Below are positions 5,291 through 5,784 of a stretch of DNA of 64,000 nt, piece after piece. Position 1 is the stretch's first letter. Every line of letters begins with the position of its first letter. Made by a program: the position numbers and the translations under genes. Origin of the DNA: an uncultured delta proteobacterium (GTDB lineage: Bacteria; Desulfobacterota; Binatia; JACPRU01); contig CAVUWD010000002.1 of NCBI GenBank assembly GCA_963745025.1, positions 64,001-128,000 of the forward strand. The letters are read 5' to 3'. A model generated the notes under the pieces. The model ran no database searches, was not told where the DNA came from, and worked only from the letters and a program-made list of their open reading frames with translations.

Positions 5291-5784
5291 CCGACACAAG
5301 ACGACCATTGCCTGAGGCGCGTAGAGAAGACATCGTTGTCCAGGAGTTGCCGGATGAGACGCTTGTTTACGACCTGAAGCGCCATAAGGCGCTTTGCCTG
5401 AATCGTGCAGCCGGCCTCGTCTGGAAGCACTGCGACGGACGGACGAGTGTCGCCGAAATGGCCGTGCTCCTCGAACGGGAGCTGCAGACACCCGTGAAGC
5501 ATGAGGTGGTGTGGTTCGCGCTGGAGCGACTGGAGAAGGCTCGCCTGCTCGAAGAGAAGCTGGACCTGCGGTCTGGCGTGAAACGACTGTCGCGACGGGA
5601 GTTGGTTCAAATGGGGCTCGCCGCCGCTATTGCCGTGCCTGCCATCTTGTCGGTGGTTGCTCCGAGGGCAGCTCAAGCGGCTACCTGCCTTGCATTAGGT
5701 TCACCTTGCACCAAGAACAATCAGTGTTGCTCCAATCACTGCCGCTTTCCAACCCCGGGCCAGAGCGATGTCTGTGTGCCGTGA
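5287..5784 (+). CDS. PqqD/RRE-domain protein fused to a twin-arginine-like signal and a Cys-rich C-terminal peptide
   Basis: VQELPDETLVYDL..ALCLNRAAGLVWKHCDG (PqqD); SRRELV + hydrophobic stretch + AQA; tail TCLALGSPCTKNNQCCSNHCRFPTPGQSDVCVP. Confidence 0.85.
   Translation: MTDTRRPLPEARREDIVVQELPDETLVYDLKRHKALCLNRAAGLVWKHCDGRTSVAEMAVLLERELQTPVKHEVVWFALERLEKARLLEEKLDLRSGVKRLSRRELVQMGLAAAIAVPAILSVVAPRAAQAATCLALGSPCTKNNQCCSNHCRFPTPGQSDVCVP

Follow-up and report, generated by a model that had tools for sequence, protein, structure and literature searches.

A PqqD-type domain, an internal signal-like segment and a predicted knottin core in one bacterial open reading frame beside kinase and nucleotidyltransferase genes

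How does a bacterium come to encode a peptide with the cysteine order of venom knottins, and what is this peptide attached to? The question is raised by a locus in 64,000 nucleotides of DNA from an uncultured delta proteobacterium of the Binatia (contig CAVUWD010000002.1 of assembly GCA_963745025.1, positions 64,001 to 128,000), the whole of which is referred to as the window. On its plus strand an open reading frame (ORF) of 165 residues (5287..5784) combines a PqqD-type recognition element of the kind used for peptides that ribosomes synthesize and that are modified after translation (RiPPs), an internal signal-like segment and a six-cysteine core. Our proposal is a self-guided precursor, a chain with its own docking domain from which a disulfide-rich mini-protein is exported. 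In our estimate the chances of this proposal are about even.

The C-terminal end of the precursor ORF is ...VVAPRAAQAATCLALGSPCTKNNQCCSNHCRFPTPGQSDVCVP (also given as ...LSRRELVQMGLAAAIAVPAILSVVAPRAAQAATCLALGSPCTKNNQCCSNHCRFPTPGQSDVCVP). Its six cysteines are spaced C-x6-C-x5-CC-x3-C-x10-C and are preceded by AQA|A, as read from the window ORF. The predicted mature core comprises residues 132-165 (5680..5781, plus strand) and reads A-T-C-x6-C-x5-CC-x3-C-x10-C-V-P with a knottin-like fold; Ala132 is encoded from nucleotide 5680 onward and the stop codon occupies 5782-5784. The coordinates and the cysteine spacing given in a first-pass annotation of this DNA are exact, and the AQA-A cleavage-like site named there is present. 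A free small pre-peptide of about 60 residues with an N-terminal signal is not encoded here, since about 130 residues (the PqqD domain and the internal signal-like segment) lie upstream in the same ORF. Hence the six-cysteine peptide is the last 34 residues of a larger fusion and not a stand-alone small gene.

The precursor is present as a single copy in the genome. A strict expression for the spacing (C-x6-C-x5-CC-x3-C-x3-12-C) was applied to all six frames of the whole genome, i.e. 11,292,060 residues, and gave three matches, namely the window site and two in a single ORF on contig C11. With only three matches in 11.29 million residues the spacing is no by-product of high G+C content. The C11 ORF (C11:171960-173915, minus strand, outside the window) encodes about 650 residues. 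Its N-terminus looks like a signal, a hydrophobic linker rich in Gly follows, and both matches lie in the Cys-rich C-terminus. It follows from these two knottin-spaced modules that the module occurs also without a PqqD domain.

In structure prediction the core looks like a knottin. An AlphaFold2 (AF2) model of the core alone, calculated with 26 homologues, has a predicted local distance difference test score (pLDDT) of 82.5. Foldseek returned 23 matches to this model, led by omega-atracotoxin-Hv1 (1axh; template modelling (TM) score 0.73, probability 0.99, E-value only 0.18) and followed by maurocalcin and Aps III. A VIA search, which is independent of Foldseek and covered 48,161 chains, yielded 41 chains with Z >= 2. 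Its best match was Aps III with a Z of 4.4 and a root-mean-square deviation (rmsd) of 1.6 over 33 residues; Z and absolute scores are low because the domain is tiny (37 residues), and such a Z is not meaningful alone. Superposition of the predicted fold on solved knottins resulted in rmsd values of 1.6-2.8 over 31-37 residues, and all fold matches of both searches that were recognised by name are knottin-type peptides.

A profile of 26 core sequences was also compared with all PDB sequences. It found 48 matches at E <= 10, the best of them omega-atracotoxin-Hv1 (1axh, 8.5e-6); the hairpinless mutant of 1axh came next at 5.9e-5, and two venom peptides from Scytodes had E-values of 1.7e-4 and 8.4e-4. 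The core and omega-atracotoxin-Hv1 have T-C-[IL]-P-[ST]-G-x-x-C...CCS-x-x-C in common, i.e. more than the cysteines, in alignments that are short and compositionally biased. In Pfam the window protein remains below threshold for UPF0506 (21.3 bits, cut-off 23.2) and Omega-toxin (16.7 bits, cut-off 22). Among 67 relatives, matches at E <= 0.1 were obtained for UPF0506 in 40, Conotoxin in 26 and Omega-toxin in 23, and calcines and Dickkopf appeared as well. Thus the knottin-type framework that the first-pass annotation had claimed is borne out by the homologues, by the profile search and by the structure prediction that it had suggested as a check, in which the recognised matches are inhibitor-cystine-knot (ICK) peptides. 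The annotation is right about a knottin-like and probably exported core, for which it suggested a putative antimicrobial, anti-predator or enzyme-inhibitor role, and incomplete about all that precedes this core. According to the KNOTTIN database paper, bacterial knottins are without an experimental structure (PMC5753296).

The precursor belongs to a large family. A word-index search gave 732 proteins at E <= 1e-3, nearly all of about 160 residues, and an exhaustive profile search gave 9,032, 5,406 and 1,708 cluster representatives at E-values of 1e-3, 1e-10 and 1e-30, respectively. The earlier remark that this cysteine order is mostly eukaryotic or viral understates the bacteria, since this precursor family alone has thousands of members. 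In 120 listed homologues the number of cysteines after the RR motif is 6 in 91, 8 in 13, 12 in 13, and 10, 14 and 5 in one each. The five-cysteine protein has an aberrant, apparently damaged tail, and the other 119 of 120 have an even number; members with 12 cysteines contain two tandem modules. Nearly all of the 91 six-cysteine homologues follow the framework C-6-5-0-3-n, so that the conservation of spacing for which the first-pass annotation had asked is found. In 67 six-cysteine members Arg103, the six core cysteines and Cys37 and Cys49 of the PqqD domain are invariant.

For the fusion of PqqD domain and cysteine-rich tail, NCBIfam holds no curated model that comes near its cut-off. Unfused short forms were not found among proteins of 30-89 residues by a word-index search with residues 98-165, the sensitivity of which is limited, and the ESM Atlas gave only leads below 0.8, proteins of about 85 residues with one cluster containing 10% UPF0506. 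For the analysis of gene neighbourhoods one genome per species was used; 226 stretches encode precursor relatives, and 77 loci were kept. By record titles most of them belong to Pyrinomonadaceae/Blastocatellia or Gemmatimonadota and a few to other phyla.

Residues 1-100 (5287..5586, plus strand) are assigned to a PqqD-type RiPP recognition element (RRE), a winged helix with a three-strand sheet and the invariant Cys37 and Cys49. The Pfam model PqqD (PF05402) matches residues 24-69 with 25.9 bits at a gathering score of 23.4, and it matches 67 of 67 family members. An AF2 model of the whole precursor on 67 homologues has a pLDDT of 82.3, with 89-95 in blocks of the N-terminal domain (residues 11-90) and 82-93 in the C-terminal domain; the hydrophobic stretch joining both domains is poorly defined (51-56). 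In this model the PqqD domain consists of strands 16-20, 24-29 and 34-39 and three helices. Foldseek matches of the N-terminal domain are TbiB1 (5v1u_B, E-value 8.9e-4, TMt 0.73) and the lasso B1 protein 6jx3_B (TMt 0.75), and also PqqD; the C-terminal domain of the same model was matched to knottins. The codons of Cys37 and Cys49, which are invariant in 67 homologues, lie at window positions 5395-5397 and 5431-5433, and Cys37 is located within the predicted kinase interface described below; the two may have a metal-related, redox or structural role.

Between the two domains an internal twin-arginine-type signal is predicted (residues 101-131, 5587..5679, plus strand). It consists of L-S-R-R-E-L-V, a hydrophobic stretch and S122-V-V-A-P-R-A-A-Q-A, with a predicted signal-peptidase site between Ala131 and Ala132. 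In 67 sequences Arg103 never varies and Arg104 has a conservation of at least 90%. Relative to the first core cysteine (Cys1), 117 proteins have Ser or Thr at -1 in 110 cases, Ala at -3 in 108, Pro at -8 in 112 and again Ser or Thr at -12 in 109. Since the -3/-1 rule leaves A-x-A|A-[ST]-C as the sole good site, the product would have 34 residues here; the conservation of this motif is compatible with release by signal peptidase. The RR motif, residues 103-104, is situated behind a folded domain and not at the N-terminus, where a Tat (twin-arginine translocation) signal is located. The genome encodes TatC (255.5 bits, contig C13) and a VKOR-type oxidoreductase (97 bits, 470-residue frame). The export route may be Tat or a Sec/YidC signal-anchor route.

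Start codons were surveyed in 92 genes, i.e. the 77 loci with their paralogues and the window gene. None of the 92 has a stop codon between the domains. An ATG, GTG or TTG is found within 12 codons before the RR motif in 69, with a Shine-Dalgarno-like motif in 14. That the core is expressed as a small gene of its own, from a start within the ORF (in the window, GTG at 5578), was rejected as a general rule, as the Shine-Dalgarno-like motif occurs in these 14 genes only and none precedes the window GTG. In 28 of the 92 genes a Met at -2 gives M-[SN]-R-R, which resembles what would be left of a normal N-terminal Tat signal after fusion of a PqqD gene onto it.

The precursor gene is flanked by two genes for enzymes on the same strand. 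Upstream, an HprK-like P-loop kinase of 299 residues is encoded (4391..5290, plus strand; best NCBIfam model TIGR04352), and its stop codon overlaps the precursor ATG by 4 nucleotides. In 40 of 40 kinase homologues His113, the Walker A residues Gly128, Gly133 and Lys134, and Ser150-Asp151-Glu152 are invariant. Downstream follows a nucleotidyltransferase-fold protein of 354 residues (5942..7006, plus strand), assigned to PF14907 (NTP_transf_5) with a Pfam E-value of 5.8e-26 and 92 bits; Lys104, Gly105, Asp122, Asp124, Asp150, His152 and Glu186 are invariant in 54 of 54 homologues. We take PsmN, the nucleotidyltransferase of the pseudomycoidin system, to be a member of PF14907 as well. In 5785-5941, after the precursor gene, no terminator-like sites were found in a search for a terminator or attenuator, and the fold z-score is +1.10.

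These neighbours recur. In the 77 loci the kinase was found in 50 and the nucleotidyltransferase in 61, compared with 3 for the AsnB-type gene, 1 for the membrane protein and 0 for the GT4 glycosyltransferase of the window. When the synteny was corrected for flank length, 63 loci with enough flank remained, in which presence was determined by tblastn at an E-value of 1e-5. The kinase is present in 44 of them, the nucleotidyltransferase in 55 and both in 41. Direct adjacency on the same strand, with the kinase upstream in 35 and the nucleotidyltransferase downstream in 44, is the commonest arrangement. Other frequent neighbours in the 77 loci are a C25 peptidase (23), a TPR/CBM protein (22), Wzy_C (18), a WbaP-like transferase (17) and Wzz/BY-kinase (15). 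In L020:2609-5764, L009:4406-5722 and their relatives, a Peptidase_C25 (gingipain-type) of about 1,050 residues and a protein with TPR and CBM_4_9 are encoded just upstream of the kinase. The C25 peptidase may reflect lineage synteny or may be a candidate processing protease.

A complex of kinase and precursor was predicted from both alignments. The ipSAE values are 0.81, 0.82 and 0.82, and the best of three controls reached 0.00; the ipSAE mark is reached by 116 of 157 solved complexes and by 2 of 215 mismatched pairs, counts that are rough and to be read with the custom alignments used here in mind. The runs have at least 83% of the contacts in common and a partner pLDDT of at least 79. On the kinase side the predicted interface comprises residues 96-104, His113, Arg129, Glu152 and helices 218-249, and on the precursor side the PqqD sheet (17-39), residues 121-134 and residue 148. 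In this prediction the signal end and the first residues of the core are thus placed between RRE and kinase, near the P-loop. A kinase profile has no meaningful sequence match among solved chains (best E-value 0.25), a search that would miss complexes alike in fold only, so the prediction may be a recall of a solved complex.

Leader and core differ strongly in their conservation. Pairwise identity averages 0.59 in the PqqD domain and 0.61 in the signal segment, compared with 0.32 at the non-cysteine positions of the core. We compared 61 gene pairs with a leader pS (proportion of synonymous differences; pN, nonsynonymous) below 0.45. Core pN exceeds leader pN in 61 of 61 and core pS exceeds leader pS in 59 of 61. 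The closest pair has a leader dN of 0.007 and dS of 0.031 (dN/dS 0.22), and over 23 core codons a dN of 0.127 and dS of 0.059 (dN/dS 2.16); in close pairs generally the leader dN/dS is 0.1-0.35. As the cores differ at silent sites too, replacement of a core cassette behind a conserved leader is indicated rather than fast point change alone. Two to four precursor paralogues are present in 12 of the 77 loci. In L010, L060, L078 and nine others they have near-identical leaders and different cores, and the three copies in L010 differ by a leader dS of 0.17-0.24.

For a self-guided precursor we propose the following course. The PqqD/RRE domain (residues 1-100) would remain in the cytoplasm and serve as a docking domain within the chain. 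It and the HprK-like kinase, with its C-terminal helices, would clamp S-V-V-A-P-x-A-A-Q-A-A-T-C of the same chain, i.e. the signal end and the first core residues, and thereby bring a conserved Ser or Thr to the kinase P-loop; candidates are Thr133 directly before Cys1 and Ser122. The PF14907 nucleotidyltransferase, which the docking domain probably docks as well as the kinase, would probably decorate the phosphate, by analogy with PsmK and PsmN of pseudomycoidin. The internal twin-arginine-type signal could then insert as a hairpin, with the PqqD domain remaining inside, the core would cross the membrane and signal peptidase I would cleave A131|A132. The released core of 34 residues would fold into a knottin with three disulfides. 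Hypervariable cores would be exchanged between near-identical leaders, which would fit interactions with other organisms or varying targets. A bolder version is possible but doubtful. It sees a new RiPP-like class with a whole RRE domain as leader, which recruits kinase and nucleotidyltransferase in cis. The product would be phosphorylated and then glycosylated or nucleotidylated at the Ser/Thr beside Cys1, exported by an internal Tat-type signal that is masked until tailoring is complete, and released as a decorated knottin. With cores swapped as cassettes it would be a bacterial counterpart of the venom-peptide superfamilies, directed against competitors, predators or phages in soil.

Several points weigh against the self-guided precursor. 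What the sequences show or the models predict is the domain architecture with its conservation and synteny, intact catalytic motifs, the folds and a complex of kinase and precursor; phosphorylation and decoration (and where they occur), the way of export, cleavage, disulfide pairing and biological activity are what we infer. Curated Tat-signal models, which are short, match in few of the 67 relatives and with weak E-values (PF10518 in 3, TIGR01409 in 2). A Tat signal preceded by a folded domain of 100 residues is unusual, and disulfide-rich peptides normally use general secretion (Sec). The kinase matches TIGR04352 (HprK-related kinase A) with an E-value of 4.7e-13 and 48.9 bits, far under the cut-off of 200, and has no match in Pfam. 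It was not detected in 19 of the 63 flanked loci, nor was the nucleotidyltransferase in 8; hence the enzymes may be non-obligatory or may have another substrate. With custom alignments, the score of the complex is a confidence of the model, and the hydrophobic segment may bury against any partner. Thr133 and Ser122 may be kinase sites by conservation alone, as the model does not show which residue faces the P-loop. For the exchange of cores, part of the high core pS may come from non-homologous cores that were misaligned; moreover, the cores are short and the gene pairs non-independent. The polysaccharide genes in the neighbourhood could point to a role in envelope biogenesis instead. Finally, PsmK and PadeK act on a C-terminal Ser according to the pseudomycoidin paper (PMC6993621), and a conserved C-terminal Ser is absent among the 120 listed members of the precursor family. 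Modification of the core by the cluster enzymes is suggested by synteny, intact catalytic motifs and the complex model.

Some of these observations suit other explanations. The hydrophobic segment is conserved like the PqqD domain (0.61 vs 0.59), which is unusual for a throw-away signal and would fit an uncleaved bitopic membrane protein. In such a protein the segment would be a signal anchor, the cytoplasmic PqqD domain an adaptor that tethers the kinase and perhaps the nucleotidyltransferase, and the Cys-rich ectodomain a periplasmic sensor or a glycan- or partner-binding module for polysaccharide assembly. The cassette indeed ends a glycan locus, Wzy_C, WbaP-like and Wzz/BY-kinase genes stand beside it in 15-18 of 77 loci, the predicted contact of the kinase with the PqqD sheet suits an adaptor equally, and the second protein with this spacing, on contig C11, is a large envelope-type protein that ends in two knottin-spaced modules. 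However, more than 90% of 117 proteins have A-x-A|A-[ST]-C with Pro at -8, and an anchor has no need for such a site. The ectodomains are swapped and hypervariable, with one or two modules of differing frameworks, tandem paralogues occur in 12 of 77 loci, and residues 121-134 are modelled against a cytoplasmic kinase, which is incompatible with membrane-spanning. We consider the membrane protein unlikely. It is quite unlikely, too, that the knottin is secreted without modification. In that event the PqqD domain would be an intramolecular export chaperone that masks the signal end up to completion of the chain, like the signal-binding Tat chaperones, and kinase and nucleotidyltransferase would act on another substrate such as a glycan or another protein. 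The loci in which these enzymes were not detected (19 and 8 of 63) and the absence of a conserved C-terminal Ser of the lasso-kinase type agree with this, and in bufferins the signal peptides are dispensable for modification (PMC11626156), so that the roles of signal and leader are separable. The order kinase, precursor, nucleotidyltransferase is nevertheless the commonest (35 and 44 of 63 adjacent on the same strand) and includes a 4-nucleotide overlap, the predicted complex sets precursor residues beside His113, Arg129 and Glu152 of the kinase, and Ser or Thr is near-invariant at -1 and -12, all of which counts against this explanation.

Two further explanations concern the origin of the tail. 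By horizontal transfer, as opposed to convergence, the bacterial knottin tail would descend from arthropod venom knottins or would have given rise to them. The core profile does reach omega-atracotoxin-Hv1 at 8.5e-6, with a likeness that exceeds the cysteines and an identical C6-C5-CC-3-C spacing, and the Scytodes peptides at 1.7e-4 and 8.4e-4. Yet these alignments comprise 22-26 residues dominated by Cys, Gly and Ser, the bias amounts to 7.7 of 28.8 bits, and members of the family also match unrelated knottin families (conotoxins, calcines, Dickkopf, UPF0506). Knottin frameworks are, moreover, widely held to have arisen repeatedly. A transfer is therefore very improbable in our view. That the cysteine pattern arose by chance, in DNA that is non-coding or read in the wrong frame, has a negligible probability. 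High G+C content, which yields many spurious long ORFs, is the only point in favour of this explanation, which is refuted by the three matches in 11.29 million residues, by hundreds to thousands of homologues in the same frame and with the same framework, and by the leader dN/dS of 0.1-0.35.

How does the proposed self-guided precursor compare with known systems? With ICK peptides (hexatoxin-Hv1a 1axh, Aps III 2m36, SOTI-III 4aoq, maurocalcin 1c6w and omega-conotoxins) it has the order C-C-CC-C-C in common, and C6-C5-CC-3-C is identical to 1axh. In contrast to these, the host is bacterial, and an RRE domain and an internal signal replace the eukaryotic signal and propeptide. Conotoxin gene superfamilies have a conserved signal and pro region and a hypervariable core with a Cys framework. 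The precursor family resembles them in its conserved leader and hypervariable core, whereas their hosts are animals. The Tat signal-binding chaperones TorD and DmsD act in trans on cofactor enzymes; here, too, a cytoplasmic domain is predicted to hold the signal end before export, but the domain that does so belongs to the same chain as the exported part. The NCBIfam HPr-rel-A system (kinase A, TIGR04352; PqqD family peptide chaperone, TIGR04353) likewise pairs an HprK-related kinase with a PqqD-family protein. It differs in that our kinase scores 48.9 versus 200 bits, TIGR04353 is absent in the window protein and found in 6 of 67 relatives (best E-value 0.0017), and no curated model covers the fused Cys-rich form.

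The closest parallel for the enzymes is the tailoring set of the lasso peptides paeninodin and pseudomycoidin (B1, PadeK/PsmK, PsmN). According to the pseudomycoidin paper, the HprK-family kinase PsmK phosphorylates precursor and peptide, and hexose is added to the phosphate with the help of the nucleotidyltransferase PsmN, which this step needs (PMC6993621). As in this set, genes for these three kinds of protein are neighbours, and the RRE fold is nearest to the lasso B1 proteins 5v1u and 6jx3. Our kinase keeps the P-loop and an acidic pair and our nucleotidyltransferase a D-x-D pair, as PsmK and PsmN do; Asp158/Asp159 of PsmK and Asp134/Asp136 of PsmN are residues mutated in that paper (PMC6993621). 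Unlike in the lasso set, neither a lasso cyclase nor a B2 protease was seen in the conserved cassette, RRE and substrate are one chain with an export signal after the RRE, and the core is a disulfide-rich mini-protein and no lariat. That RiPP precursors with signal peptides exist is known from bufferins (PMC11626156). Bufferins (DUF2282, BUF_6/12Cys, with MNIO and DUF2063-RRE partners) are similar in that their precursors are small Cys-containing proteins with a general-secretion signal instead of a dedicated exporter, a signal-peptidase cut and an RRE involved. Theirs, according to that paper, is an N-terminal Sec signal, the RRE resides on a separate partner and MNIO oxidases make thiooxazoles (PMC11626156), as opposed to the internal twin-arginine-like signal, the cis RRE and the kinase and nucleotidyltransferase neighbours found here.

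In the literature searched, with subscription journals and bioRxiv supplements outside the search, no description of an RRE / internal signal / knottin architecture was found. Publications pairing HPr kinase, PqqD and nucleotidyltransferase were lasso papers only, and those on UPF0506 were parasite papers only; papers that mention both PqqD and knottins, judged by title and opening of the abstract, did not deal with it. The components are all of known kinds and their arrangement is undescribed in this literature. In soil bacteria, by the thousands, the precursor lies between kinase and nucleotidyltransferase genes, and this location is a pointer to an undescribed route to secreted mini-proteins. 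If the proposal is true, uncultured bacteria of soils and wetlands, thousands of them and by record titles from Acidobacteriota, Gemmatimonadota and other groups, make a hypervariable library of ultra-stable disulfide-rich mini-proteins by this route. The orphan module of kinase, PqqD protein and nucleotidyltransferase would have its substrate, and nature would offer an example both of an internal Tat-type signal and of an RRE joined to the substrate it recognises. Knottins are prized as scaffolds for drug design, and the route would supply a logic for expressing them in bacteria.

The cassette stands at the end of a 20-kb glycan locus in this genome. The surface-glycan genes upstream (window 12-4194 and L081, C2:44001-64000) encode several GT2/GT4 glycosyltransferases, Wzm/Wzt-type ABC export, RmlC and sugar C- and O-methyltransferases. 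Also encoded in the locus are a PMT_2-like membrane protein and an amidotransferase of the asparagine-synthase type, for which XrtA/PEP-CTERM amidotransferase is the best model, at a score below cut-off. A lasso cluster was considered and rejected: the AsnB-type gene (12-1679) occurs in 3 of 77 loci, reaches 226.4 bits with the lasso cyclase model, which asks for 525, and passes the asparagine synthase model with 421.6 versus 267.1. A B2-type protease was not seen among the annotated co-occurring gene families, and no search aimed at a B2 model was made. On the 3' side of the cassette a fragment of an IS66 transposase (7096-7938, C-terminal part only), a Fic/Doc and MazE-type pair (8058-8699), an HTH_3 protein (9187-9579) and a Phd and PIN pair (9980-10653) follow. 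This mobile, toxin-antitoxin-rich stretch (7096-10653) marks the end of the glycan locus.

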